Source of the DNA: a virus
Lineage: Duplodnaviria > Caudoviricetes
Length of the DNA stretch: 24,461 nucleotides
Direction: 5' to 3' (one strand)
IMG/VR virus record: IMGVR_UViG_3300035493_000011
Location: 1-24,461 of that record
Shown one piece after another: positions 3,500 to 23,292 of this stretch; within the stretch, counting starts at the first letter, position 1; the number at the start of each line of letters is the position of its first letter. Under the pieces are notes generated by a model that saw only the letters and a program-made list of their open reading frames with translations, did not search any database and had not been told where the DNA came from. The translations under genes and the position numbers were made by a program.

Positions 3500-6400
3500 T
3501 TACATAGTCGGAGCCTGTCCATTCTCGATAGCGATGCGTCGTTCTACTGTTCGTTTGCCATGTGCATCGGCCATCTTGTTCGCCCCGAAGTAAACGCCGG
3601 CGGCGAGTAGCGCGTTATCGACATAGCCCTTCGGATTATCTGCGATACTCATTGCCATAGACATGGAAGGAATCCAGTTCTCCATCGCTAAGAATCCACC
3701 CGGGCGTTCCAGCATACCGATGTATGGTGACAGTGCTGTGGCCGATTGCAGTGTAGTGCTCGCCAATGTGCCTGCCATATCCACGCCGGTCATGTTGAAT
3801 AGATAGTGCGGAGGTGTTTGCGTACCCATCAACGCCGCCGGTAGGCCGTAAGCGATGGCGTGCTTGACGCCGAGTCCTAGCATACCCGTCGACATACCGA
3901 TAGTCAGTAGCCACGTCGCTTGTGATGCGGCGTCTTTATAGTTACCGTCTTTCAGGTTGTCCGTGATGCGTGGTAGGAAGTGACGGCCCGCCGCGTAGAA
4001 GAATCGCTTGAACTGCATCGCCAATTTACCAAGTGGTGTATCTGCCCAGAACGGTAAATCGCCCGGGTTAGCGTGGAGCACCCGGCTCTTTTGCCATTCG
4101 TACATGAACTTGGTGATGGCTTCTGCGGCTTGCGCGTGCTCGGCAGAATCCAACTGGCTAGGCTTGCCGGCGTCGACCCATGCTTTGTACTGCTCGGGGC
4201 TAATGCCCATCTCTTTGAACGCACGCCCATACTCGGCACGAGTAGCGTCACTCATACCGTCTTTGGTCATCGCTTCATAGGCCGCTTCCAGATACAACTC
4301 TGCGCCGCGAAGTGCGGTCATGCGCATGAAGTTGTTCCACATATGCAGACCCGCCCCTCGGTAGAAGCGCGAAGTAATTTCGTTGGCCCAACCTTCCACG
4401 CCTTGGGTGGCGCGTGCATCACTGAATAGTTGCAGGGCGAAATCCATCATGGAGTCTGTCAACAAGCCCAGCTTCTCCAGTTCCATCTTCTTGCGCTCAC
4501 GTTCCATCTTATTGATTTGTCCGAGCGACAATGCAACGCCCAGTGCTTCGCGCAGGGCTTTAGCTGATGCCTTGCGTTCTTCTGGGGTTTTTGCCGCCGC
4601 CATTTGGAACGCTGATTCCGTCAAGGACACGGGCACAATCAAAGCCATGAACGCGACAGTAGCGACCATACGTGCCACCGCCGCTGGGCCGCGAAGCCAC
4701 TGGGCCGAGCGCACTGCTGGTAGGCCCATGACCGCGTCGATAGCGCGAAGTGCTACCTGCTTCTGGTCTGCGCTCAAACGCCTATCATTCAAGAAGTCCG
4801 CCAAGTCGTTACCGTTAGAGGTAAGTATCGGCTTGCCTTCGTTATCAATTTTGAATGCTCCGAACTCTTTCACGAACTCGGTGTGTTGTACCGTGCGGTT
4901 CAAATATGGAGGGATTACTTTGGATGGGTCGCGTACGATATAGTCGCCGAATACCCAGTTGGGTAATTCGATAGAGCGGCGGCGCATATTCCCGGACTCA
5001 TTCACCCCGATAGTCTGCACCAATGAGCCGACCTGTTGAAACAACTGCCCGTCTTTCGCCATCAACAAATCATACAGCGCATATGCGTCACTCTCACTTA
5101 CGCCATCCACGAACGTGGAAGTGTTCTCCACCACTGTACGGACAAACCCCTCGCGGTCGTCTGCCATTTTTGAGAAGTCGAATATGCGTGGGGCGTGGCG
5201 CTTACGTTCTGAACTTAGAACCATGCTACCCTGACCCATAGGCACTTCGACGATTCGTCCATTGCGGTAGATGATGTTACCCTGCTCGCCCTCTTTAGGT
5301 TCACGCAACACTGGTGATGCCGCGTTGGTTTCCATCTCTTGCAGTTTCACTTCTAGGGTAGAAGTCAACTCCTCGTCGTTGGTGGCACGCGCGGCGCGCA
5401 GTTGCTCAACCAATGCTTTGTGCTCCGGCTTGGCGCGTGCCGCCTCAATCAAACGATTGGCTTCCGCTAAACCGGCTGCCTTGATGTGGACATCATAGAA
5501 CTCTTTATGTATTTTGCGGATGCGTTGTAGTTCCGTGCGCTGTGCATCAGTCAGCTTGTAATAGTCATCGGGGCGTTCCGAAATGAATGCATCCCAAGCC
5601 GCCTGTCTATCCTCTTTAGATAACGTGCTAAAGGTGGAGAAATAGCGCGAGCGGAATAGGTCAACACTACGCTTTACGTTATCCTCATACTTGGTTAGTC
5701 GGCGGCTTATAGGCCCGTTCGACATACCCAAAGCGGCTTCGATAGACTCGATGGTGCCGATTGCAGAGCGTACGAATGACGAGAACTGCAACGGGTACTT
5801 ATCGCCGAGTGTACGGTTCACTGCCTCGAACGCACGTGCAATCTTGGTCTTCTGCCCTACACCTACTGGGGTAGGCTCTGCGGTGGCCCTGCGGAATAAG
5901 AACCCGGCGTAGTCGGCTGGGTTGGTGCGAAGCTGTGCCCCGCTCTTAACTCCCTTGGCTATGTCCTCCACGATAGTGCGAAGTTCCGCTTTCGACTTGA
6001 TGCCTTTGATTAAACCGAAGCGGCGTAACACTTCGGACACCATGCGTACCACGCGGTCGAAGGCCTGACCCAATGCGCCACGTGATTCTTCGGCTACCAT
6101 TGCGAACACTTCCTCGGCACGTGTCGCCTCGTCTACGTTATTGTATCGGCGGTCAACGCTCTCCCAAACTTTCTTGAAGCCGGGTGCGTTGCGGGTTTTT
6201 GCGATAGCGTTTAGTAGAGCGGTCTTCTGCTCCGGCGAAAGAATGTTAAGGCCGAAGTGAGCATAGACTTCATGGCGGAAAGTACGCTCGGCTTCTTTTC
6301 TATTGCGGTTGTTCGCCGCGAATAGGATAAGGGTGTTCGTTGTCGGATTATATGCACCGAAGGACGTAGTCGCTTCTGGGCTACGGACAAGTGCGTCCGG

Positions 6401-9400
6401 GCCAAACGCCTGTTCAGGGGTGTCAAAAATAAGAACTTGGGCCTTATTAGTTTCCAGTCCGGTGTGGGCATCTTTCATACTCTGCAAGAAGGAACGAGCC
6501 TCGGATAATGACATATCCGATTTCTGTTGTCCATCCGCCTTACGGAAATCAAAGTCGTCCGGGTTGTATCCATCACGTTCGCTGGCCGTTGCTTCTGCCA
6601 CATCACGTTCTAGGTTTGCGTCTAGTTTCTTTTTGGCTCTGGCTTTATCGGCTACCTTTTGAGTTTTGGTGCTATCCGATGCCGTGCCTAATGCTTCCGG
6701 GAAAGTCGCTTCGATTTCATCCTTGACAGTCTTCAAGTCGTTAGGTACTTCATACCCACCGAAACCATCAGAGAAATGTTCGCGGATTGTAGCCGCATCC
6801 TTCGCATTGATACCCAACTCTTTGACGGCTTGGTTCACCATCGCTACCGCTTCTTCATCATATAGGGTAGCTTGCTTCGCCTGCTGGGTAGGTTCGGCTT
6901 TAGGTGGTTGTACCTGCTGGGTAGGTTCGGCTTTCGCCTGCACCTGCTGGGCAGGTTCGGCTTTAGTTGGTCGCGCCAATCTGCTCTGGGCTTCATCGAC
7001 TGCCGCTTGTGCGATATTGCGTGGGGACAACACTTGGCCAATATCAGTTAAATATTTATTGGCTGATTCGGCCACATCCGCTGGTACACGCTTCAAGGAA
7101 TCTAAGTAAGCCGCATAGTTTCTGTCTGTACCGAACCAAGTGCTTGACCTTGATGAATAGAATAGCTTCCCAATCGCGTTGCTTACATCATCAGCCGTCA
7201 CCTCGACCTGCACTCCTGCGTTCGCCAATCTCTCATTCAGGGCTTTGGCATAGGCATCGGCCTTACGCTGGATTCCCAACGCGAAGGAATGTACGTTGGC
7301 CGCGGTGGCGCGCGCCGCGTCTAGTTTCGCTTTATTGGTTGGGCCGACTGGTTTTGTAGCCTCGAACGAATCGAACGTCACCTGACTGGCCGGTTTTGCT
7401 ACTGGCTTGGTTGCCTGTGCTGGTGCCACTTCTTCTTTCGGCGTTGGCGCTTTTGCGGGTTCTTGTTGCGTCGCGGCATTGGCTACCTCCTGTACAGGTG
7501 AAGTAGGATTAAGTTTGCCCAGTTGTTCACGCAGTTGGTCGACCTCCATCTGTAGCATACCGATGTCGTCCTGTACCTTCTGGCCAGACGTACGAGCAAT
7601 GGCTTTGTTCTTAGCCTGCGCAACTAGGTTAGAAATCGTCTTGGACTGGATACCCTTGGCATTGACCAATGCGTTCTCGATGATGGGGTCTGCCTTATCT
7701 ACTGGGGTGCCTACCAGTTGGTCTACCAACTGACGCACCAATGGGGAGCGGCTTGGCGTCCCCAAATCTGCTTCGGTGAATACTGGGTTGCCGACTGTCG
7801 CCTTGAGTTGTTCTAACTCGGCTGTCTTCTTCTGCAACTCGGCCTGCTTAACTGCCGCGAGTGTCTGGGTCAGTTTAGCCAATGCACTGTCACGACGAGC
7901 GCCGCGTTTCTCTTGGCGTAGGCGCTGGGCTTCGGCTTCCTGTTGAGCGGCTTGCTCCTCCGCAATAGAGCGTTGACGATTGGCCGTAGCGGTGTCCATA
8001 GCCACCAACGATTCAGTAGCGGCATCCTCGACTCTCTGCTTACGCTCACGCAAGGCTTGGAATACATTGGTCAATGACCGTACCGCGTCTTTCTTATCGG
8101 CGGCGGCTTGCACCATCTCCCGTGCGGCGGCAGATGATTCGCGTCCAGATGCCATCTGTTCTGCCAGTCCGGGGTTAGCGTCTTCGTAAATCTGCCCGGC
8201 TGTACGTCCGGCCATATCGAATAGTTGCATCTGCGGGGCGGCGGTATCTGTAGTAGCAGGTTGCGGTGTTTGTTCGGGTAGCAATGAACCTCGCCCTCCA
8301 AACAAATCGTAATTCTCTCCGCGTGGCACTGCGTCGAACGGAGGTCTACCCGGTTGTGGCGGTACAGCAATCGCTTCGCCAGTAGCTTCTGGCGCGCTCG
8401 TCAAATCGCGGAGCATACCCAATACATTGACGCGTTGACGCCCTACGCGGCTCGCCTCGGCGTTGTAGGCCAATGCTGTGTTTTTCAATTCCGCCATCAA
8501 CCGGTCGAACTGCGCGCGATTCTCTGGCGTGGGCTTACTAACCATGTCGTCCTTAAGGATACGCGCACGCGAAGCTAGGGTCGTCAACTCGGATTGGAGG
8601 TTGTCCGCTGTGTTGTAGACATTCGGGTTGACGCCAATGCGAGGTACAACATTCGCCGTAGGTTGTCCGTTAGCATCGAACAAATCAAGCTGGATGCCAT
8701 TCTGTTGCACCTCCGGTAACGGCTGTGTAAGGTTGCGTGATGCCGCGTATTCTGCAATCTGTTGCTCGCGCATTGCATCTGCCGCGCCGGGTAGAAGTTG
8801 ACCAGCCCCGTCGAACATCTCGATGTTGGTTCCTTTCGGCGCGTCCCGCATACCGGTGTTGTCGGGTTGTTCCGCAACTTGTGGCGGCGCTTGCGTCTGC
8901 CCTCTAGCAAGTCCTGCTACTGCGGCTACTGGTGCGGCGCCAATCATCTCCTGCCACGCATCTTGCGCAATCATGTCCTGCCCGTAAGGGGACAACAGTT
9001 CGTAGTCGCGGTTTCCTTGGTCAACTGCGGCTCGGTTGATAACCCCCTGCGCGGCGCCAGTAGCCGCCTCACCCGCCAAGATTCCGCCTGTACGCGTCGC
9101 ATAGTTATCCGGTAGAGAGAATGGCGACCCATGACCCGCCGGTACATTATCGACTTTACCTGCCAAACGACCGGCCACGCCTGTATACGGAACCATATCC
9201 AGCGCGGTGTTCAGCATAGATGGGGCTACTGCGTTACGGATTGAATCCGCGTCAGACATACCATGCGATTGCTGGACATTGACGGATTCACCGAACGCAT
9301 ATGGATAATTGGCGATGGCGCCTGCCGCCAAGCCACCGACCGCTTTGGCGGTACTGCTAAGTCCTATCGAGCCAAGCGTAGCCCCTGCACCGATACCGGG

Positions 9401-9757
9401 GATAAGGGCTGTACCCAACTGCCCGACACCTTGGCCCATGATGTATGGGATAGAGTCGCTTGCCAGTCGTCCAGCCTGTTCGGTATTGAACTTCGCTTCG
9501 GCAACATTACGACGGAACCCGGCTTCATCATCCACCATCAGGCTTAGTCCGGCTTTCAAGTAATCCAACCCCGCGCCGAACTGGTCGGCCACCGATGCTA
9601 GACCGGAACCGAATGAGCCTATATGCCCCGGGTCTACTGCGGTACTACCCGCCTGTTGTGCAATCTGTTGGTTCTGTCGCGCTTGCGCTTGCGCCTGTTC
9701 ATCGGCGGCGCGTTGCTGGGCGAGTTGATTCAAATAGTCTAGTGGCGAAACTGGCAT
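3500..9757 (-). CDS. Very large internal virion / ejection protein (2085 aa) with a zincin-like metallopeptidase motif
   Basis: Last gene of the ejection cluster; helical and low-complexity segments. GAYNPTTNTLILF...RHEVYAHFGL...AEEVFA resembles the HExxxH peptidase-like domain of phage large polyvalent proteins. Confidence 0.75.
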   Translation of the reverse strand: MPVSPLDYLNQLAQQRAADEQAQAQARQNQQIAQQAGSTAVDPGHIGSFGSGLASVADQFGAGLDYLKAGLSLMVDDEAGFRRNVAEAKFNTEQAGRLASDSIPYIMGQGVGQLGTALIPGIGAGATLGSIGLSSTAKAVGGLAAGAIANYPYAFGESVNVQQSHGMSDADSIRNAVAPSMLNTALDMVPYTGVAGRLAGKVDNVPAGHGSPFSLPDNYATRTGGILAGEAATGAAQGVINRAAVDQGNRDYELLSPYGQDMIAQDAWQEMIGAAPVAAVAGLARGQTQAPPQVAEQPDNTGMRDAPKGTNIEMFDGAGQLLPGAADAMREQQIAEYAASRNLTQPLPEVQQNGIQLDLFDANGQPTANVVPRIGVNPNVYNTADNLQSELTTLASRARILKDDMVSKPTPENRAQFDRLMAELKNTALAYNAEASRVGRQRVNVLGMLRDLTSAPEATGEAIAVPPQPGRPPFDAVPRGENYDLFGGRGSLLPEQTPQPATTDTAAPQMQLFDMAGRTAGQIYEDANPGLAEQMASGRESSAAAREMVQAAADKKDAVRSLTNVFQALRERKQRVEDAATESLVAMDTATANRQRSIAEEQAAQQEAEAQRLRQEKRGARRDSALAKLTQTLAAVKQAELQKKTAELEQLKATVGNPVFTEADLGTPSRSPLVRQLVDQLVGTPVDKADPIIENALVNAKGIQSKTISNLVAQAKNKAIARTSGQKVQDDIGMLQMEVDQLREQLGKLNPTSPVQEVANAATQQEPAKAPTPKEEVAPAQATKPVAKPASQVTFDSFEATKPVGPTNKAKLDAARATAANVHSFALGIQRKADAYAKALNERLANAGVQVEVTADDVSNAIGKLFYSSRSSTWFGTDRNYAAYLDSLKRVPADVAESANKYLTDIGQVLSPRNIAQAAVDEAQSRLARPTKAEPAQQVQAKAEPTQQVQPPKAEPTQQAKQATLYDEEAVAMVNQAVKELGINAKDAATIREHFSDGFGGYEVPNDLKTVKDEIEATFPEALGTASDSTKTQKVADKARAKKKLDANLERDVAEATASERDGYNPDDFDFRKADGQQKSDMSLSEARSFLQSMKDAHTGLETNKAQVLIFDTPEQAFGPDALVRSPEATTSFGAYNPTTNTLILFAANNRNRKEAERTFRHEVYAHFGLNILSPEQKTALLNAIAKTRNAPGFKKVWESVDRRYNNVDEATRAEEVFAMVAEESRGALGQAFDRVVRMVSEVLRRFGLIKGIKSKAELRTIVEDIAKGVKSGAQLRTNPADYAGFLFRRATAEPTPVGVGQKTKIARAFEAVNRTLGDKYPLQFSSFVRSAIGTIESIEAALGMSNGPISRRLTKYEDNVKRSVDLFRSRYFSTFSTLSKEDRQAAWDAFISERPDDYYKLTDAQRTELQRIRKIHKEFYDVHIKAAGLAEANRLIEAARAKPEHKALVEQLRAARATNDEELTSTLEVKLQEMETNAASPVLREPKEGEQGNIIYRNGRIVEVPMGQGSMVLSSERKRHAPRIFDFSKMADDREGFVRTVVENTSTFVDGVSESDAYALYDLLMAKDGQLFQQVGSLVQTIGVNESGNMRRRSIELPNWVFGDYIVRDPSKVIPPYLNRTVQHTEFVKEFGAFKIDNEGKPILTSNGNDLADFLNDRRLSADQKQVALRAIDAVMGLPAVRSAQWLRGPAAVARMVATVAFMALIVPVSLTESAFQMAAAKTPEERKASAKALREALGVALSLGQINKMERERKKMELEKLGLLTDSMMDFALQLFSDARATQGVEGWANEITSRFYRGAGLHMWNNFMRMTALRGAELYLEAAYEAMTKDGMSDATRAEYGRAFKEMGISPEQYKAWVDAGKPSQLDSAEHAQAAEAITKFMYEWQKSRVLHANPGDLPFWADTPLGKLAMQFKRFFYAAGRHFLPRITDNLKDGNYKDAASQATWLLTIGMSTGMLGLGVKHAIAYGLPAALMGTQTPPHYLFNMTGVDMAGTLASTTLQSATALSPYIGMLERPGGFLAMENWIPSMSMAMSIADNPKGYVDNALLAAGVYFGANKMADAHGKRTVERRIAIENGQAPTM
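6880..6964. repeat. Three near-tandem 22-bp repeats encoding KAEP(T/A)QQ in a linker of the giant protein
   Basis: CCTGCTGGG(T/C)AGGTTCGGCTTT at 6880, 6913 and 6943. Confidence 0.9.
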
Positions 9758-14289: not shown

Positions 14290-15423
14290 TTACAGTGCAA
14301 CGTCCAGTGCTAATACACCGAAGTCTTCTACAGCACCAGAGTATGTGCTGTGGAACTTAGGCTTACGCAGGCCGAACAACTTGTTGACTGCGATACCGTA
14401 ACGGTTTTCGTAGTCGAAGTCTTTTTCAACCCAGTTAGGTGCGCCAAGGTCAACATAACCCAGTGCTTGTGCGCCACAGATTAGTACGCGAGCACCGTTT
14501 ACATCGCCTGCCGCACCCCACTTGTTACCAGCAGTAGCGCCAGCAGTGTTGAATACGTGGCGGTATTCGTGAACAATCAGGCCGTCAACAGTGATGTCAT
14601 CTGCACCTTTGAACAGTTCAGAATTCATACCCTGCTGTGTAGCCGCAGAACGTACGTTCGCCAAGTAGTCTGGGTCTAGGCGTAGTTTAGCCATCGCCAA
14701 TGGAGTAACGAACACGTGGAAGTATTCCTTACCGCCTTCCATGATTCCGCGAACACCTTGGTCTTTTAGATAAGCCTTGGCCAATACCAAACCTTTGTAA
14801 GACAGAGTGTCAGCAGGAACGATAGCAGTAGTATCGCCGGCGTCCAAATCACCAGTTGAGGCATTCCAACGCAAATGACGTCCGGCAGTCGGAGCAGATA
14901 CGTCTGCCGCGAATTCCAATGAAGTCACTTCCGATGCTACGTTACGCGCGGCACCGTTAGAGCGTAGAGAATAGTCAACACCAGACAGAGTCAGGAACGC
15001 CAACTCGTCGATGATGTTAGCCAAGCCATAAGACAACTGGTCTTTAGCTTCCTTACGGAACTGGATGATAGACTTCTGGTCAGACATACGACCGGTGTTG
15101 GCGTGTGCCAAACGGAACTGGTCGAAGCGGATGTCCATGTGGTAAGAAGTCATCGTGTCTTCTTTACCTTGTAGGACGTTGTCGCCTGCTACACCAGTGT
15201 AATCAGCGTTAGCCAACAAAGTCATAATGGCTTTGTTGCCGCCTTTGTGTGACGCGTTCAGTTCAGTGATTCGCTGAATCATTGAGTTAGAGCCAGTGCT
15301 CAAGAAACGAGTCAAGAAGGATTTGTTGCGAACCTCTTTCCAGAGTTCCATAGACCAAGCGGTACGTTGTTCAGGCTGTAGCGCCGCGAAGTTCGTACCT
15401 ACTGGGGTGTCATAAGCTGCCAT
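14290..15423 (-). CDS. Major capsid protein (377 aa; N4-gp56/DUF4043-like family)
   Basis: Start moved to ATG 15423 behind AGGAGG. TNFAALQPEQRTAWSMELWKEVRNKSF...MIQRITEL...GVAGDNVLQGKE...LICGAQALG...WVEKDFDYENRYGI...EDFGVLALD. Follows the scaffold gene and shows strongly biased codon use. Confidence 0.92.
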   Translation of the reverse strand: MAAYDTPVGTNFAALQPEQRTAWSMELWKEVRNKSFLTRFLSTGSNSMIQRITELNASHKGGNKAIMTLLANADYTGVAGDNVLQGKEDTMTSYHMDIRFDQFRLAHANTGRMSDQKSIIQFRKEAKDQLSYGLANIIDELAFLTLSGVDYSLRSNGAARNVASEVTSLEFAADVSAPTAGRHLRWNASTGDLDAGDTTAIVPADTLSYKGLVLAKAYLKDQGVRGIMEGGKEYFHVFVTPLAMAKLRLDPDYLANVRSAATQQGMNSELFKGADDITVDGLIVHEYRHVFNTAGATAGNKWGAAGDVNGARVLICGAQALGYVDLGAPNWVEKDFDYENRYGIAVNKLFGLRKPKFHSTYSGAVEDFGVLALDVAL

Positions 15424-15577
15424 AAGGCCTCCTAAAAATGCAGTAGTCAAAAAAGAAATTTTGGTGTACGGGGAATATCGCTTACCCTAGCGAGAACAAC
15501 AGGCTTTACAGAACCCGAAACTGTACGGTTCGCTCACCGTAAAGAGAGGAAGGATGTCGTCCCTACCCACTACGACA
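15424..15577 (-). other. Structured 5' leader of the capsid mRNA (four hairpins with pseudoknot potential)
   Basis: Stems at 15555-15577, 15524-15541, 15507-15525 and 15478-15493; purine-rich loops have adjacent complementary pyrimidine tracts. Confidence 0.55.
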
Positions 15578-16783: not shown

Positions 16784-18937
16784 TTAAAGTCCGTTCGCGC
16801 CGGCTTTGACGCTTTGTTGCTGGTTATATCGTCCGACTTGCCCTTGGTGTTGACGCATACGCCCGGCTTCTGCCTGCATCTGCGCTACCGTTAGCTTCGC
16901 CATCAATTCATTAGTCTTATTGGTCAGGTCTGTTTCAGATTTCATGCGCTGTTGTTTCAGGGCAAATGCCGGTGACAGACTGTCCGCTTGCGCCTTCGCC
17001 ACGTTGCGCATGGTTTCAGATTGTGTCTTACCAATCTCGGCACGCAGTTCCTCAAGTTCCAGCATCATGCGCTCCAACGCCATCTGTTGCTGGGCCTGCA
17101 TCATCTGCTGTTCTTCTGGGCTAGGCTGTCCTTGGCCCATCATCTGACGAACACGTTCCGCAATCTCGTACTTGTTCTCCAAGTGACTATGCTCGATGAC
17201 TGCGTCGTCTGGGATGATGACCCCAGCGTTGCGTAGCTGGATGACTTCCGCGAACTGTGACTCCTCGAAGGTTTCACGAGTAGGCACGGTGTCAATAACC
17301 ACGTCGTACTTACCGATAGACAAATCATTCAATACGCCGCTGGCGGTCATCATATTCAACTGCAACATTTCCGGCGTCGCATTAGGCGCGTTACTTGAAG
17401 TCACGCGTACGACGCGAGGCTCGGTGTAATACTGCTGGAACAGGTCGAGTACACGCTTGGCCAGCAAGTGACGGGAGTAGTCGAGGTTGTCGAACACCAC
17501 CTGCAACTGTGCAAGGTTCTGGCTGATACGACCCTCCAGCACCACGCCAGATACCTCTGGGCTACCCTCACCCAACATATACTCCGATACCCCGGAGATT
17601 TGGCGTAGACTAGACATCGCCATCTGCGCCAAGTCACGTACCCCTGTCGGAATCTGGTTAGGCTGGATTTTCTGCGGAGCCTGACGCCCGTGTGCAACCT
17701 CCATGACCAAACCCGTCTTGGCGCCGTGTGTGCGCAACTCTGCCGCTGTCATATTGACCAGCGAGCCTTCCTCCATAATCCAACCGCTATTAGCCGTGGT
17801 GTTGACGATGTGCAACGCCTGCGAACTAATCTTGTTGAACTGCTCCTGCGGGTCGAGTAGGTTACGCACCAGACCGAATGGACGGCCACGACGGAAGTAT
17901 GGGAAGAACGGTACGACTGTGAAGGCCTGATACGGCGACCAATCATCGTGCAATAGCACGCTGTCGGCTGAAATAGTCCAGCGAATCTGACTCTCGGTGC
18001 GCTCTACCACACGTAGGTTGAACTGCTCCTGCATAGCGAGGATGCGTTCTTCGTCCATATTATCGGGGATGACAGAGGTATCACCCGTCGTGAGGTCGAC
18101 GAAATACTTCATCACGCGCATCTTGCGATACTGGCGCTCGATGACACGTACCTTGCGCACTGACTTACCTTCGGAATCTACCCCGGCGGAGTTATAAGTG
18201 CTGGTCGTACCGTTGTCGGTGTCGCCGTACGTTTTGGAACTGGTGAATGTGACCGAGTCGTGGCCGTAGGTCGCGCTGGCGTTATAGGCTAGTGCGGCAA
18301 CTTCATTCGCCTTCTCCTCGCCATACAAGTCCTCGATGTCGTCAACTGACATCCAGCGTGAGATGAACACCTCTTTCCACTCGGCAGGGTCATACTCTTT
18401 GGCATCCGGGTCGATAAGGACTGACAGTGGGTCGAGGGTCTTGATGGACACGTCGCCTCGCAGGTTCTCGTCGAAGTCCATACGCACCTCGAAGAATCCG
18501 CGCTCCATAATCAGGCCGTCCTCGAATATCATGCGCTCGCGGCGGTCATACATATTCGCGTTACACACCTGCATATAGAGTTTGCTCAACGCATTGGCGA
18601 CGCCATCATCACCCTCACCCGCCGGAATGAAGCGTACGTTCTGGCGCTTGTTGACGTAGGCGCCGATAACTGCATTGACAATCGGCTGTACCATATTGAT
18701 AGTCAGCGCAGGGCGCTTCTCCTCGTCCAAAGCCTTACGCGTGTCGGCATCCCACTGCTCGCCGACATAAAAGTCCTCGCACTTCTGCGCCAATTTGACG
18801 TAGTCAGCGTGGCCATTATCCCGTGCGCGCAGGTAGCGGTCGTAGTTGTTACGCGCTATCTGGGTGCCATCGAACTTCTTTTTGGCATCTTCGACCGCAT
18901 CTTCGGTCAAGTCATTGCCTAATGGTTCTGGTTCCAT
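16784..18937 (-). CDS. Portal protein, P22-like (717 aa)
   Basis: DFYVGEQWD...RPALTINMVQPIVNAVIG...IDPDAKEYD...GRPFGLVRNLLDPQEQFNK...GKYDVVIDTVP with a Gln-rich C-terminal coil; follows TerL. Confidence 0.93.
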   Translation of the reverse strand: MEPEPLGNDLTEDAVEDAKKKFDGTQIARNNYDRYLRARDNGHADYVKLAQKCEDFYVGEQWDADTRKALDEEKRPALTINMVQPIVNAVIGAYVNKRQNVRFIPAGEGDDGVANALSKLYMQVCNANMYDRRERMIFEDGLIMERGFFEVRMDFDENLRGDVSIKTLDPLSVLIDPDAKEYDPAEWKEVFISRWMSVDDIEDLYGEEKANEVAALAYNASATYGHDSVTFTSSKTYGDTDNGTTSTYNSAGVDSEGKSVRKVRVIERQYRKMRVMKYFVDLTTGDTSVIPDNMDEERILAMQEQFNLRVVERTESQIRWTISADSVLLHDDWSPYQAFTVVPFFPYFRRGRPFGLVRNLLDPQEQFNKISSQALHIVNTTANSGWIMEEGSLVNMTAAELRTHGAKTGLVMEVAHGRQAPQKIQPNQIPTGVRDLAQMAMSSLRQISGVSEYMLGEGSPEVSGVVLEGRISQNLAQLQVVFDNLDYSRHLLAKRVLDLFQQYYTEPRVVRVTSSNAPNATPEMLQLNMMTASGVLNDLSIGKYDVVIDTVPTRETFEESQFAEVIQLRNAGVIIPDDAVIEHSHLENKYEIAERVRQMMGQGQPSPEEQQMMQAQQQMALERMMLELEELRAEIGKTQSETMRNVAKAQADSLSPAFALKQQRMKSETDLTNKTNELMAKLTVAQMQAEAGRMRQHQGQVGRYNQQQSVKAGANGL

Positions 18938-18951
18938 CTCTTACTCCTATA

Positions 18952-20451
18952 CTACGCGGATAGGTATCCGCTACCGGTTGAATTTTTGTTGATGTATTTG
19001 TGCAGGTCGTCCTTCCATGATTTCTTCTTAGGAGGCTCACGCTTCTGTGGTGGTATGACCATGTTGATGGCAAAGCCGCAATAGGCGAAGGCGTCGACTT
19101 GGTCGTCGTTACGTCCGTTGGGGAACTTCAACAGTTCCGCCTCGAAGTCTGTCAGCCACTCGGAGCGTTCCGGGAAGAACACTTTGCCCTGCTCCAGTCT
19201 GGCGACGATGTTCATCGCACGTCCGACCTTATTGGCACGTCCGGGTTTCAACTTCTCCAAGCGGATGAACGCCTTGCGCTCATTCATGCGCTTGACCAAC
19301 ATCGGCTCGATGGTCGCGGCAATTTGCCCGACCTCCAGCCCGGTCAACTGCGCCTTGTATTTCTGGTGCGTGTCGATGATGCGCTCGACCAACTCGATAG
19401 CCGAGAATCGACCACGTATCACGTCGAGGATATACAGGTCTTGATTGCGGTCTAGTGCGGCCACCACGCCCACCGAGTAGTCTGTGCTCTTACCGGTTGA
19501 CAAGTCCCATGTCACCATGACAGCGGTGTCCTCCTGCTCCGGGAAGTCGGCACGGGGTTTGTATTTGAAATTCGCCGCTTTGAACAGGTCGCCCTCTGCC
19601 GGTACTGGGTTCTGCTGGTACAGACTGTTCCAATCCCGCGTACCCACCGAGGAGCGGATACGGGCCAAGGCCTGCTCGTTATAGCGTTCAGGGTGCAAGG
19701 CCTCTCCCGCTTTGCGGTTCGGCTCGTCCTCCTCGGCAATGGCAGGGTAGCGGATGACTTTGAAGTTCTCATGCTCCAGCGCCTCAAGGTATCCGCCCAA
19801 GTCGTCCTCATGCCAGCGAGTGAATAGAACCAATAACCCTCCGCCGGGCATTAGTCGGGTGTATGCCGTGGAGGTAAACCAGTTGACCACACGTCGACGG
19901 TAGGCTTCTGACTCCGCAGACTCACGGTCTGGGTACAAGTCGTCCAGCACCATGATGTTCGCACCCTTACCGGTCAAGCCGCCACCTACACCTACCGCGG
20001 TGTAGCTTCCCATCTCGGTGGTTTTCCATGACTCGACAGCGGCCATGTCGGTATGCAGATGGGTGGCGGGGAAGATGGCGGTGTAGTCAGGCTCGCGTAG
20101 CATCTCGCGGGTCTTCTTCGAGAACTCCACTGACAGGTTGGCGGCGTAGGAGGTGACTACAATTTCATTTCGTGGGTTTTTACCGAGTGCCCATGCGGGG
20201 AAATTGATGGATGACAGGACTGATTTACCGTGACGAGGAGGCATATAAATAGCCAAACGTGGGGATTCCATCCGTTCGACGGCCTCATAGAATTCTTGCA
20301 ATGCACTGATTATCTCCTCATGCACCCACCCCATCTTATAGCCGGGGTTCATGTGAATGACGAAGTCGCGCAGGTTCCGGCGGGCCAATTCACGCTTGAC
20401 CAACTCCTGCATGGCTTTCTGTTTCAATGGCGGCTGGGATGGTTGTGTCAT
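18952..20451 (-). CDS. terL: Terminase large subunit (499 aa)
   Basis: Walker A MPPRHGKS, Walker B IMVLDD, TRWHEDDL, and nuclease motifs WDLS..DYS and FPNGRNDDQVDA. Confidence 0.96.
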   Translation of the reverse strand: MTQPSQPPLKQKAMQELVKRELARRNLRDFVIHMNPGYKMGWVHEEIISALQEFYEAVERMESPRLAIYMPPRHGKSVLSSINFPAWALGKNPRNEIVVTSYAANLSVEFSKKTREMLREPDYTAIFPATHLHTDMAAVESWKTTEMGSYTAVGVGGGLTGKGANIMVLDDLYPDRESAESEAYRRRVVNWFTSTAYTRLMPGGGLLVLFTRWHEDDLGGYLEALEHENFKVIRYPAIAEEDEPNRKAGEALHPERYNEQALARIRSSVGTRDWNSLYQQNPVPAEGDLFKAANFKYKPRADFPEQEDTAVMVTWDLSTGKSTDYSVGVVAALDRNQDLYILDVIRGRFSAIELVERIIDTHQKYKAQLTGLEVGQIAATIEPMLVKRMNERKAFIRLEKLKPGRANKVGRAMNIVARLEQGKVFFPERSEWLTDFEAELLKFPNGRNDDQVDAFAYCGFAINMVIPPQKREPPKKKSWKDDLHKYINKNSTGSGYLSA

Positions 20452-20876
20452 AGTTCCTCGAACTCTCCCTCGATGACTTCCTCGCCGGACGCGATGCGTC
20501 GCAATTCGTCATCGGTTAGTCGGGCTAATTCTTCCATTGAAGCACCGGCGTTGATGTTTATCTGTCGCTCCGGTGCATACAGACCGTTCATCTTGCCCAG
20601 TTCCTTCACGGCGGCGACGCGCTGTGCCGAGTTCTCGGCGGTATCGTAGGCGTCCAGTAGCATCTGATTCAGTAGTGGGCGGGTGATGCGCCCCATGTCT
20701 TTCAGCTTCTTGCGCGCTTCCTCTACAGTGACACGCCCGAAGTGTAGGTCAATCTCGTCGTCACTCACGCCGTTTGCTTTCGCCTGCAACGCCAAGCCCT
20801 GCTCCATCGTCAGAGGCGCTTGGTATCCTGCACTCTCCAGCAGGTCTACGGCATCTTTGAATGAACGCTTTGCCAT
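20448..20876 (-). CDS. terS: Terminase small subunit (142 aa)
   Basis: Overlaps the TerL start (ATGA); AAVKELGKMNGLYAPERQI...LARLTDDELRRIA helical pattern. Confidence 0.7.
   Translation of the reverse strand: MAKRSFKDAVDLLESAGYQAPLTMEQGLALQAKANGVSDDEIDLHFGRVTVEEARKKLKDMGRITRPLLNQMLLDAYDTAENSAQRVAAVKELGKMNGLYAPERQININAGASMEELARLTDDELRRIASGEEVIEGEFEEL
20516..20528. promoter_or_regulatory. Palindrome copy (TTAGTCGGGCTAA) inside terS, ~65 bp upstream of terL
   Basis: Identical to the copy at 9779-9791. Confidence 0.5.
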
Positions 20877-21183: not shown

Positions 21184-21212
21184 ATTATAGTTAGATAGCG
21201 GGCGGAAGTCAA
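21184..21212 (-). promoter_or_regulatory. Strong leftward sigma70 promoter
   Basis: TTGACT (21212-21207), 17 bp, TATAAT (21189-21184); the spacer contains ATCTAAC. Confidence 0.85.
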
Positions 21213-21490
21213 CGGTGGATTTGTATAAGTAGAGTTATACCATATAACTAATTAAAGGATTACCGATGGATTTTTATGGAAATTTGTGCGTACTTTTTCT
21301 CCCCTGCTCACCCGCTCGCCGGCCCCCCTCACCGGAACTGGATTTTTGGCCGCCCACTTTTCCGGTTTGCAAATTGACGAAATCAGCAGTCGGCCCTTCT
21401 ATGGTCGGCGTGGCGCGGTCGTCCGCCCCCCACCCTTACCCATTGCCGCCTAGTCCTTGCCGCTTGCCGCCCGCCCGTTTGCATTAAAAC

Positions 21491-21519
21491 TTGACAATCT
21501 AACCCTAGTTAGATAAGAT
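21491..21519 (+). promoter_or_regulatory. Strong rightward (early) sigma70 promoter, copy 1
   Basis: TTGACA, 17 bp, TAAGAT; part of a perfect 33-bp direct repeat (21490-21522). Confidence 0.88.
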
Positions 21520-21575
21520 ATAGGCAAGTCGAAAGGAAAACCCTTGCGACTTAAGTCGGGCGGTTTGAATGCCGC

Positions 21576-21604
21576 TTGACAATCTAACCCTAGTTAGATA
21601 AGAT
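21576..21604 (+). promoter_or_regulatory. Strong rightward (early) sigma70 promoter, copy 2
   Basis: Identical to copy 1 (repeat 21575-21607). Confidence 0.88.
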
Positions 21605-21611
21605 ATAAACC

Positions 21612-22045
21612 AAAGCACCCATACCCATCAACGGGTAAGGCATCCGCGGCAATCGGGGTTAATATTGCCTAGTGTGTTTAGTGTTCGGATACAAGTATCG
21701 CAAGTTATTTGTATACGTGCCCTTGTTGGACACGCGAAACCCGTAGCGGGTACGCCGCCGCACGGGAGCGAATTTAAAAGCGTATAGGCTTTTAATATAA
21801 CAAGCGCGGGTTATCCCGCGGACGCGGACGCCACTGCAAGCGCGCTATAACCGCGTTTAGATTTAACAGTCTAAATTGGCTTGCCCGACGTCGATAGTTA
21901 AACTCTCTTAACCGTGACCTTTGCACGGTAACAGGGTTTAAGTAAACCCCGCCAATGCGGGAATAGCGGCAAATTAATTTGGCAATCGGTTATGGCTAAA
22001 GCGTGCGTTTACCTGTTAGCTTTACCCATTGCGGATTGCCGGATT
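21612..22045 (+). ncRNA. Candidate large structured non-coding RNA or structured early leader (~430 nt)
   Basis: No ORF in the track; directly downstream of two promoters; about ten local stems, nested closing helices and 5'/3' complementarity (21642-21654 with 22034-22044). Confidence 0.5.
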
Positions 22046-22075
22046 AAGGGTTAAGGATTAAGGATTAAGGATTAG
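22041..22075 (+). repeat. Five tandem heptamers GGATTAA (two variants)
   Basis: GGATTAA GGGTTAA GGATTAA GGATTAA GGATTAG. Confidence 0.92.
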
Positions 22076-22081
22076 TTAGAG

Positions 22082-22108
22082 TATGGGCATTGTGTAACAG
22101 TGCCCATA
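22082..22108 (+). other. 12-bp hairpin before the first early gene (RNase III-like processing or stability hairpin)
   Basis: TATGGGCATTGT-GTA-ACAGTGCCCATA with no U-tract. Confidence 0.55.
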
Positions 22109-22146
22109 TCATAACCAATCAACCACATGAAAAGGGGTAACACAAA

Positions 22147-22716
22147 ATGACCACTATCAAATCCGTTTCAGACTTCAACAAAAAGCTATCCGTTATCGGT
22201 AAAGCCGACGAAAAACTGCACGACGATATACAGGCCTGTATTGTGTTTGCGGTCAAACAAGTGAATGAGCATGAACAATTCACGCCGTTAAACGACCTTA
22301 TGGCCGCCGTCGGTGGGTTGCGCACCGCTTTGAATAAGGCCGTACGCCAATATCTAGTCTTGAAGCATAATATAGCGTTTGACGCTGAGAATAACACTTT
22401 CGGTAAAAAGGCTAAGGGCAAGCCGGTCGAGTTAGTCATGAAAGAGGGCGCGTTCTATGACGCCATTAAAACGGCGGCTGAGAAACGCGCTAAGGCGGCG
22501 GCTGAACGGAAAGCGGCAAAAGCAAACGACGCGGGCGAAAGCAATGGCGAAACTGGTGATGGCACGCCATTCAGTAATGTCAAAAAGTCTAAGAATGGCA
22601 CCATTGCGCAAGCTGAAAGGGCGGTGCTTGATGCATTGGCCAAGTACAGCCACGAAGAGAAGGTTGCCGCACTAAAAGCGGCGCTGGCCGATTTGGATAA
22701 AAAAGCGGCGGCGTAA
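22147..22716 (+). CDS. Early hypothetical protein (189 aa)
   Basis: AAGGGG RBS. The N-terminal domain (KLHDDIQACIVFAVKQVNEHEQFTPLNDLMAAV...R..AVRQYL) recalls a common first-early-gene family of podoviruses. Ala/Lys-rich C-terminus. Confidence 0.85.
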   Translation: MTTIKSVSDFNKKLSVIGKADEKLHDDIQACIVFAVKQVNEHEQFTPLNDLMAAVGGLRTALNKAVRQYLVLKHNIAFDAENNTFGKKAKGKPVELVMKEGAFYDAIKTAAEKRAKAAAERKAAKANDAGESNGETGDGTPFSNVKKSKNGTIAQAERAVLDALAKYSHEEKVAALKAALADLDKKAAA

Positions 22717-22729
22717 TTAGTCTAACTAA
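22717..22729. promoter_or_regulatory. Palindrome copy (TTAGTCTAACTAA) right after the stop of the 189-aa gene
   Basis: One mismatch to consensus; upstream of a possible promoter TTGCAT-16-TATAAT (22740-22767). Confidence 0.6.
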
Positions 22730-22757
22730 CAAATGCCAGTTGCATGACTGGCATTTG
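22730..22757 (+). other. Perfect 11-bp inverted repeat (hairpin)
   Basis: CAAATGCCAGT-TGCATG-ACTGGCATTTG. Confidence 0.65.
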
Positions 22758-22792
22758 CATTTATAATGCGCATTGTCACCAGTGCGTATCAT

Positions 22793-22909
22793 AAATGTGT
22801 ACCATGCAAATGTGTACCATGCAAATGTGTACCATGCAAATGTGTACCATGCAAATGTGTACCATGCAAATGTGTACCACGCACCATGCAAATGTGTACC
22901 ACGCACCAC
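22793..22909. repeat. Tandem 15-bp repeat AAATGTGTACCA(T/C)GC: five perfect plus two variant copies
   Basis: Units start at 22793, 22808, 22823, 22838, 22853, 22868 and 22890. Confidence 0.95.
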
Positions 22910-23183
22910 CAGAAAAAGTGCCCGGCACACATTTTGGAACAGATTTTTTGCATCGGCACACCCTCGGCACACCCAAATGCACACACTCCAGCCCGCTCCA
23001 GTAGCGGCCTGCACAACCTGCACAACTTTTTTTTCTATTGGTTGAATAAAATATATATAAATAGAGAAACAAACAAGCCGACAAAAAACTTGTTCCGCTT
23101 GTGCCGACGGTTCCACACAATCCACGGTTTCCCTTTAAATTCAACCACTTAAGCGCGGCACAACCCCTTTTTTCTGCACCAGC

Positions 23184-23251
23184 CCGCACAAAACACGGCA
23201 CCCGCCGCACAAAACACGGCACAGAAAGCCACGTTCCGCACAAAAATGCAC
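23184..23251. repeat. Direct repeat CCGCACAAAACACGGCAC x2 plus a degenerate third copy
   Basis: 23184-23201, 23205-23222 and 23236-23251. Confidence 0.85.
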
Positions 23252-23292
23252 TAATCGAAAAGCCCGCTTAACAAGTGGGCTTTTTCATTAGT
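23250..23292 (+). terminator. Long hairpin: intrinsic terminator or RNase III-like site
   Basis: ACTAAT-C-GAAAAGCCCGCTT-AAC-AAGTGGGCTTTTTC-ATTAGT. Confidence 0.6.

Follow-up and report, generated by a model that had tools for sequence, protein, structure and literature searches.

Bacteria usually cope badly with long untranslated RNA, since Rho terminates its synthesis and RNases degrade it. In bacteriophage T7, an RNase III site lies before gene 0.3, and in phage HK022 the put RNA, a lambdoid cis-acting antiterminator of about 70 nucleotides (nt), comprises two stem-loops. The T7 record places the promoters A1, A2 and A3 at 498, 626 and 750 and the first gene at 925. Structured RNA species from 5' untranslated regions (5' UTRs), with no assigned function and outside the family libraries, are described in virulent Pseudomonas phages studied by ONT-cappable-seq (PMC10914365), and GOLLD and ROOL are large ornate RNAs of several hundred nt, often borne by phages or prophages and likewise without assigned function (PMC12286853). 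Here, we analysed a 24,461-nt virus record from IMG/VR (the window; linear class, completeness estimate 39%), in which a strongly folding stretch of 539 nt, free of credible open reading frames (ORFs), lies between a pair of predicted early promoters and the first rightward gene, which encodes a protein of 189 amino acids (aa). This stretch is hereafter referred to as the leader.

The locus resembles the head of the T7 early region, where tandem strong host-type promoters come first, then an untranslated stretch with hairpins that leads into the first early gene with no terminator in between, over 427 nt from A1 to the start of gene 0.3. However, the T7 stretch is largely filled by further promoters, whereas the 539 nt found here are promoter-free hairpins, and the two phages are unrelated and have no sequence similarity. 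Like put, the leader would be a promoter-proximal structured RNA in an early transcript; unlike put, it has no predicted terminators before the first gene that would need read-through. The Pseudomonas phage candidates are shorter than 250 nt and have mapped ends formed by premature termination, whereas the leader exceeds 500 nt and contains no predicted terminator. The GOLLD and ROOL models are unmatched here, even at E values up to 10, and the thermodynamic signal of the leader lies in local hairpins.

Our preferred reading, held tentatively at a probability of roughly 0.45, is that the host RNA polymerase likely transcribes segment 21608-22146 as an untranslated 5' leader, which heads the first early mRNA and would act mainly in cis. 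Directly observed are the two promoters, a stretch devoid of ORFs that folds in excess of chance, no terminator ahead of the gene, the same plan and length in one relative, and a conserved UTR core beside the ribosome-binding site. The leader is real, structured and unclassified; a discrete 400-nt multi-junction non-coding RNA (ncRNA), as proposed for 21612-22045 in a sequence-only reading of this DNA, is not established.

Promoters and coding content

The elements around the leader are the following.

21212-22147: divergent intergenic region
21434-21471, + strand: two direct 17-nt repeats, spaced 21 nt, upstream of both promoters and outside their transcripts
21490-21522, + strand: early promoter P1, TTGACA-17-TAAGAT, 33 nt
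21523-21576, + strand: inter-promoter segment with two hairpins, belonging to the P1 transcript only
21575-21607, + strand: early promoter P2, 100% identical to P1
21608-22146, + strand: leader, 539 nt, ORF-free and strongly folding, enclosing 21612-22045
22147-22716, + strand: 189-aa gene, the first rightward gene
22730-22757, + strand: terminator-like hairpin after the 189-aa gene, the first such + strand site downstream of the promoters

The two identical consensus promoters that had been read from the sequence are borne out as 33-nt copies, of the sigma-70 type, 85 nt apart and each matching the consensus at 10 of 12 positions. The spacer and the -10 region of P1 contain an inverted repeat, ATCTAAC..GTTAGAT, and the inter-promoter segment (54 nt) folds at -22.4 kcal/mol, with a z-score against shuffled sequences of -3.14. 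The promoter motif is common to the window and to the three promoter copies of a related phage (contigs L082 and L002); in IMG/VR, the promoter pattern matches only the L002 contig and one unrelated contig of 162 kb. A single metagenome contig (run X4, depth 4.5) fuses position 21489 to 21575 and has one promoter copy; it represents either a phage that naturally has one promoter or a repeat that collapsed during assembly. The direct-repeat pair upstream of P1 is possibly a regulator-binding site; L082 has an analogous pair at 1098-1132, also spaced 21 nt, with words that differ from those of the window. Judging only by the type and position of the promoters, the transcript would appear at the onset of infection.

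On the + strand, the segment from 21608 up to the ATG at 22147 is free of ORFs of at least 25 aa, except for a 40-aa frame with a TTG start (21665-21787), which has no counterpart in L082. The earlier statement that no tracked ORF lies behind the promoters therefore holds, in that nothing credible was found apart from this unconserved frame. Likewise, the leader of L082 has only three frames of at least 25 aa (29, 42 and 62 aa), none of them with a counterpart in the window leader, and the two leaders have no common peptide in any frame. A search of the leader for a small coding gene with a ribosome-binding site (RBS) and conservation in L082 found none, and conserved small ORFs, which could have accounted for the region, are thus absent.

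No terminator-like site was found on the + strand between 21608 and 22147, and the last hairpin of the leader abuts the RBS. Barring processing, the leader should therefore form one RNA with the message of the 189-aa gene, and the notion of a discrete RNA of about 400 nt is not supported. An intrinsic terminator of the kind that marks an attenuator or an ncRNA made by premature termination was also not found in the leader.

Known RNA families gave no account of the region. Rfam 15, whose families include GOLLD, ROOL, riboswitches, ribozymes, RNase P and 6S, has 0 matches at gathering thresholds in the whole window; at E values up to 10, segment 21400-22250 gave four noise-level rows (E of 6-10, 13-18 bits against thresholds of 35-100). 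ARAGORN found 0 tRNA or tmRNA genes. The earlier remark that no tRNA, tmRNA, RNase P or hammerhead signature is recognisable agrees with these searches. Furthermore, blastn of the region against phage and plasmid records gave no match, and no 78-nt window of the leader has C exceeding G by at least 8.

Folding strength and strand asymmetry

The 434 nt singled out by the sequence-only reading have a z-score of -4.67 on the + strand and -3.74 on the - strand, and the whole 539-nt leader has -5.92 (+, 100 shuffles) and -4.80 (-), so the folding excess expected there is present at both lengths. When the contig was divided into 539-nt tiles (n = 45, + strand, 25 shuffles each), the leader tile was the extreme of all 45 with a z-score of -6.71. 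The next two tiles (-4.59 and -3.15) both lie directly to the right of the leader, and the other 42 range from -2.74 to +2.30. In a sliding scan with 120-nt windows, the z-score stays mildly negative along the whole region and peaks at two places, the promoter pair and 21960-22160.

About nine local hairpins carry this folding signal. The mean paired probability of the leader is 0.62, and a single unpaired run of at least 12 nt is predicted. The long-range helices that had been proposed to enclose the local stems are present in so far as all four complementary word pairs exist; they are energetically disfavoured, with pair probabilities of at most 0.002. The nested multi-junction layout is not supported, as enforcing all enclosing helices gives -134.8 kcal/mol against a minimum free energy of -164.2 kcal/mol (shuffled mean -136.5). 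Enforcing the terminal helix costs 5.8 kcal/mol, and its 3' arm, 22034-22044, pairs instead within the hairpin 21974-22047. Since the enclosing helices are disfavoured in the energy model, the signal is best ascribed to local hairpins that follow one another.

In both phages, folding is stronger in sense than in antisense. The whole leader of the window has -199.6 kcal/mol in sense and -184.1 in antisense, and that of L082 has -169.9 and -157.0; the sums over the nine main hairpins are -136.5 and -113.9 in the window and -86.2 and -75.7 in L082. With DNA parameters both strands are alike (-98.4 and -99.3). The 74-nt hairpin 21974-22047 has only -24.0 kcal/mol in antisense, i.e. about 10 kcal/mol are lost. 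The window leader has 16 G-U pairs in sense against 8 in antisense, whereas the order is reversed in L082 (16 against 20). The strand asymmetry favours selection on RNA, short of proof.

Hairpins of the leader

The leader can be described as a series of predicted hairpins, which is followed by a short block in front of the gene.

21672-21735, + strand: 64-nt hairpin capped by a GCAA tetraloop, -19.1 kcal/mol
21740-21766, + strand: 27-nt hairpin, G+C-rich, -15.3 kcal/mol
21774-21795, + strand: A+U-rich hairpin, TTAAAAGC/GCTTTTAA
21805-21820, + strand: hairpin with a 6-bp G+C stem and a UUAU loop, -10.8 kcal/mol
21857-21874, + strand: hairpin of 7 bp with a 4-nt loop
21895-21944, + strand: 50-nt hairpin, -17.4 kcal/mol
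21974-22047, + strand: imperfect 74-nt hairpin, the most stable element, -33.8 kcal/mol, with 5 G-U pairs in sense
22040-22075, + strand: five tandem heptamers, GGATTAA-like, each with AAGGA
22070-22120, + strand: terminal hairpin, 51 nt, -24.5 kcal/mol, which stops 27 nt short of the start codon
22106-22146, + strand: ATAACCAA block, C+A-rich tract and Shine-Dalgarno sequence

The local stems named in the earlier reading (21689-21714, 21774-21795, 21805-21820, 21821-21857, 21856-21875 and 21911-21929) all fold as they were described. The heptamer run 22040-22075 is the sole predicted unpaired run of at least 12 nt and is absent from L082. Outside this run the leader has no direct repeats and is therefore not iteron-like; several copies of one 10-20-nt word, as in an iteron-type origin, were not found in 21608-22040.

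Strain contigs from four runs (X2, X4, X5 and X6), each from its own study, are nearly identical across the stretch. The only variant in the leader is 21702 A>G (run X5), which changes the GCAA loop to GCGA. With a single leader variant among near-identical contigs, these strains give no covariation.

A comparable leader in one relative

With the single protein of the large terminase (TerL), searches retrieved 354 relatives from IMG/VR and 520 from JGI and other metagenomes, and with a TerL alignment they retrieved 466 from GTDB genomes and 574 from IMG/VR. Few of these are close by TerL: a phage with 73% identity, represented by contigs L002 and L082, and a group with 62-64%, formed by L003, L004 and L005, while the rest fall below 50%; a further contig of the 62% group, L329, was retrieved through a conserved 27-nt intergenic element. 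L082 is the sole relative with a comparable layout, which consists of three promoter copies, a 548-nt leader and an ortholog of the 189-aa gene (49% identity over the 106 residues present). Its leader has a z-score of -5.26, and the corresponding tile, at -7.26, is the most negative of the 13 that cover the locus, the others ranging from -0.18 to -3.45. A terminal hairpin of 52 nt (-22.8 kcal/mol) stands about 25-27 nt before the start codon, as in the window. A hairpin of the same size as 21857-21874 also lies almost equally far upstream of the gene (about -290 to -273 relative to the start codon), a match made by eye.

The block ATAACCAA also precedes the orthologous gene in L082 and in L381, and TAACCAA stands in its place in the L003 type (L003, L329), L385 and L386.

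The structures of the two leaders were compared by aligning their base-pairing probability profiles (span of at most 150 nt). The profile distance is 117.0, while 200 block-order permutations of L082 have a mean of 140.7 (standard deviation 8.3, minimum 121.8), none of them as good; much of this likeness is due to the shared terminal hairpin. On the profile alignment, canonical pairing in L082 amounts to 88 against 67 +/- 9.9 in controls.

How the leader may act

In our preferred reading, the host RNA polymerase would start at P1/P2, and the first 539 nt of the transcript would remain untranslated. The dense hairpins (about 62% paired), with a single unpaired run of at least 12 nt and no C-rich, G-poor window, may shield this long untranslated RNA from Rho termination and degradation. 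The terminal hairpin, together with ATAACCAA and the C+A-rich tract by the RBS, would determine how stable the 189-aa message is and how well it is translated. Processing could take place at a long imperfect hairpin, comparable to the RNase III site ahead of gene 0.3 in T7; the hairpins 21974-22047 and 22070-22120, both long and imperfect, are the candidates. As a length of more than 500 nt and strong folding have been kept after the sequence diverged beyond recognition, the leader probably has a function that justifies its cost. If it is cis-regulatory, it would be a compact natural leader that withstands Rho and RNases, of possible use to those who design expression systems; a trans-acting leader would represent a new class of early phage RNA. 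Either view concerns a rare feature, predicted from the DNA of two uncultivated lineages.

Counter-evidence and alternative explanations

The following results, together with the small size of the corresponding region in other relatives and the behaviour of the antisense strand, weigh against a cis-acting leader. Window and L082 leaders have no nucleotide similarity beyond the last ~30 nt. When the last ~86 nt are left out of the profile comparison, 10 of 150 permutations of L082 blocks and 4 of 150 permutations of window blocks are as good as the real order. Of the 168 pairs of the window, 32 are paired in both leaders, while controls give 25 +/- 12.5 with a maximum of 61. A common leader architecture is thus suggested rather than shown, with a single relative and leaders that cannot be aligned. 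Upstream regions at four of the eight distant loci of the gene family (L380-L383) have z-scores of -1.94, -1.99, -2.35 and -1.70, which are not unusual. The T7 stretch contains a boxA-like word, whereas an ungapped search of 21400-22200 for an rrn-type boxA gave no match within 3 of 13 mismatches. Moreover, all 10 sequencing runs listed for this sequence are DNA runs, with no RNA run among them.

The L003 type (L003 and L004, both with 62% TerL identity, and L329) has two identical promoters, then ~85 nt, and then, in the corresponding position, a gene of 209-210 aa that is not similar to the 189-aa protein by BLASTP. Its UTR keeps a hairpin, the TAACCAA block, the C+A-rich tract and the Shine-Dalgarno sequence, and the 3' end of the UTR is alike in the window and L082. 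Comparison of the window, L082 and the L003 type therefore resolves the leader into a short conserved UTR core and an extra ~450 nt of hairpins in one sublineage. Since the L003 type manages with ~85 nt, the long part is dispensable for expression of a first early gene; for the same reason, a function of the module's own (in trans or at the DNA level) and a selfish or decaying insertion are serious rivals.

One such rival takes the ~450-nt upstream part (~21608-22060) as an accessory ncRNA that is driven by the strongest early promoters, released by processing and active in trans, either as a decoy or sponge for a host defence or RNA-binding protein or as a scaffold. The module is present in two lineages and absent from the L003 type with its short 3' UTR part, which is the pattern of an add-on; its length and strong folding outlast sequence divergence, the sense strand is favoured, and the long imperfect hairpins at its 3' side are potential processing sites. 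ncRNA candidates derived from 5' UTRs are also reported in virulent Pseudomonas phages (PMC10914365). However, the module has no terminator of its own and no defined 3' end, and it has no Rfam match. The two leaders have no repeated binding motif in common, the GGATTAA heptamers being absent from L082, and they lack conserved sequence blocks of the kind that functional trans-acting RNAs usually retain. We consider a separate RNA unlikely. Its more specific form, an abundant accessory RNA of the first minutes that is cut at the long hairpins and serves as a trans decoy for a defence or RNA-binding protein, appears quite unlikely. The ncRNA interpretation of the sequence-only reading stands in that the region is non-coding, strongly structured, directly behind the rightward promoters and better folded in sense, and it falls short where it makes this a separate RNA; the antitermination, decoy and scaffold roles attached to it are guesses.

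The antisense strand also folds far beyond chance (z-scores of -4.80 and -5.15), and a DNA-level or strand-neutral cause has to be weighed for this reason. Strong folding on both strands is expected of hairpins that are mostly Watson-Crick palindromes. These could be protein-binding palindromes or single-stranded DNA hairpins that form an operator loop, a packaging or entry site, or a replication signal. The similarity of both strands under DNA parameters fits this explanation, as does the location of the stretch, in the divergent region next to the genes for the small and the large terminase. The word YTTACCCRTTG, furthermore, has only 3 exact copies in 24 kb, at 21435 (+), 21629 (-) and 22021 (+); the promoter pair lies between the first two, which are inverted relative to each other. 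On the other hand, each hairpin differs from the others, and 21608-22040 is free of iterons, the iteron-like region being at 22716-23275. When one mismatch is allowed, the count of YTTACCCRTTG is matched in 3 of 100 shuffles, and the G-U asymmetry favours the transcribed strand. We regard a DNA element as improbable. An operator loop between the YTTACCCRTTG copies was considered separately and rejected, as the arrangement is not reproduced in L082.

The stretch could also have no function of its own and be a decayed remnant of an insertion, e.g. of a small palindromic mobile element, or a spacer that tolerates palindromes. It is absent from the L003-type relatives, an inverted repeat pair matching at 11 of 12 positions (21629-21640 and 22020-22031) flanks ~400 bp of it, and no sequence is conserved between the two leaders. 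Neutral sequence, however, should drift to a z-score near 0, yet both leaders are the extreme tiles of their contigs, and their lengths are nearly equal (539 and 548 nt). Searches of phage and plasmid records gave no second copy, and strains from several metagenome studies are nearly identical, with no sign of decay. That both lineages, though diverged, have kept the length and the extreme folding makes pure decay less likely, and a stretch without function is, in our judgement, hardly probable.

The 189-amino-acid gene and the region behind it

The 189-aa protein belongs to a virus-only family (PHROGs 14737 and 1448, without assigned function) and has no Pfam domain. A full HMMER scan gave 13 proteins, of which those beyond its own type and the L082 type are distant (E of 5.5e-8 to 9.5e-4); eight IMG/VR loci encode distant members of the family. 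With the 189-aa protein as query, tblastn against phages gave no match, a protein search in IMG/VR gave no relative, and a word-index protein search returned only the protein itself. The AlphaFold model (mean predicted local distance difference test score 78.9) has four predicted helices, a four-stranded sheet and long C-terminal helices, and its look-alikes in the Atlas are weak winged-helix-like rows only.

The RBS region of the gene, 22133-22149 (GGTAACACAAAATG), differs from that of T7 gene 0.3 (GGTAACACAAGATG, L388 513-528) at 1 of 14 positions. This likeness is probably a convergence on a strong initiation region.

Two patterns were followed into IMG/VR. The pattern ATAACCAA..CCACA..AAAGG occurs at 50 loci, with neither the window nor the L082 contig among them. 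An 18-nt word with 16 fixed letters, GAAACNNGTAGCGGGTAC, is common to the window and L380 with seemingly compensatory stem changes, and was rejected as evidence. The pair has a blastn E value of 0.2, a 9-mer common to at least three lineages arises in 8% of shuffles, and 9 of the 10 IMG/VR matches of the word lie in unrelated contexts without the gene family.

Behind the 189-aa gene follows an ORF-free stretch of 560 nt (22716-23275; tile z-score -4.59), with further short and inverted repeats besides the following array.

22793-22897: six 15-nt tandem repeats (AAATGTGTACCATGC)

From its repeats, this stretch looks like an iteron-type origin. In L003, a repeat-rich ORF-free stretch of 850 nt is found at the same place.

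Marine phages with 45-48% TerL identity (L252, L254, L261, L272, L278, L284 and L305) have ORF-free gaps of 450-1350 nt, located 1.5-2.5 kb upstream of the terminase gene; seven of these gaps have z-scores of -7.5 to -11.9. The gap of L284 was examined as a counterpart of the leader and rejected, as it holds GTGGAACA iterons and small ORFs.

Genomic setting

The head and packaging genes of the window are on the - strand.

14290-15450: major head protein
16784-18937, - strand: portal
18952-20451, - strand: TerL
20448-20876: 142-aa ORF, which precedes the terminase gene, as does a 92-aa ORF

On the + strand, the order to the right of the divergent region is the 189-aa gene, the 560-nt ORF-free stretch and an amidoligase-like gene. 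The nearest cultured relative by TerL is Aeromonas phage phiA008 (43%, 65 kb), which likewise has a divergent plan, but with arms ~350 nt apart.

A leftward promoter, 21184-21212 (- strand, TTGACT-17-TATAAT), matches the consensus at 11 of 12 positions and lies in front of the 92-aa gene and the terminase operon. Judged against L082, an internal ATG is the probable start of the 92-aa ORF. A 2085-aa ORF without a PHROG match (3500-9757, - strand) presumably encodes a large virion or tail protein.

Between the divergent promoters, at 21271-21297, lies the 27-nt element GGAAATTTGNNNGTNNNTNNTCTCCCC, which is kept in L082, L003, L004 and L329. It is conserved in every lineage of the phage group despite diverged surroundings and may be a packaging or regulatory site.

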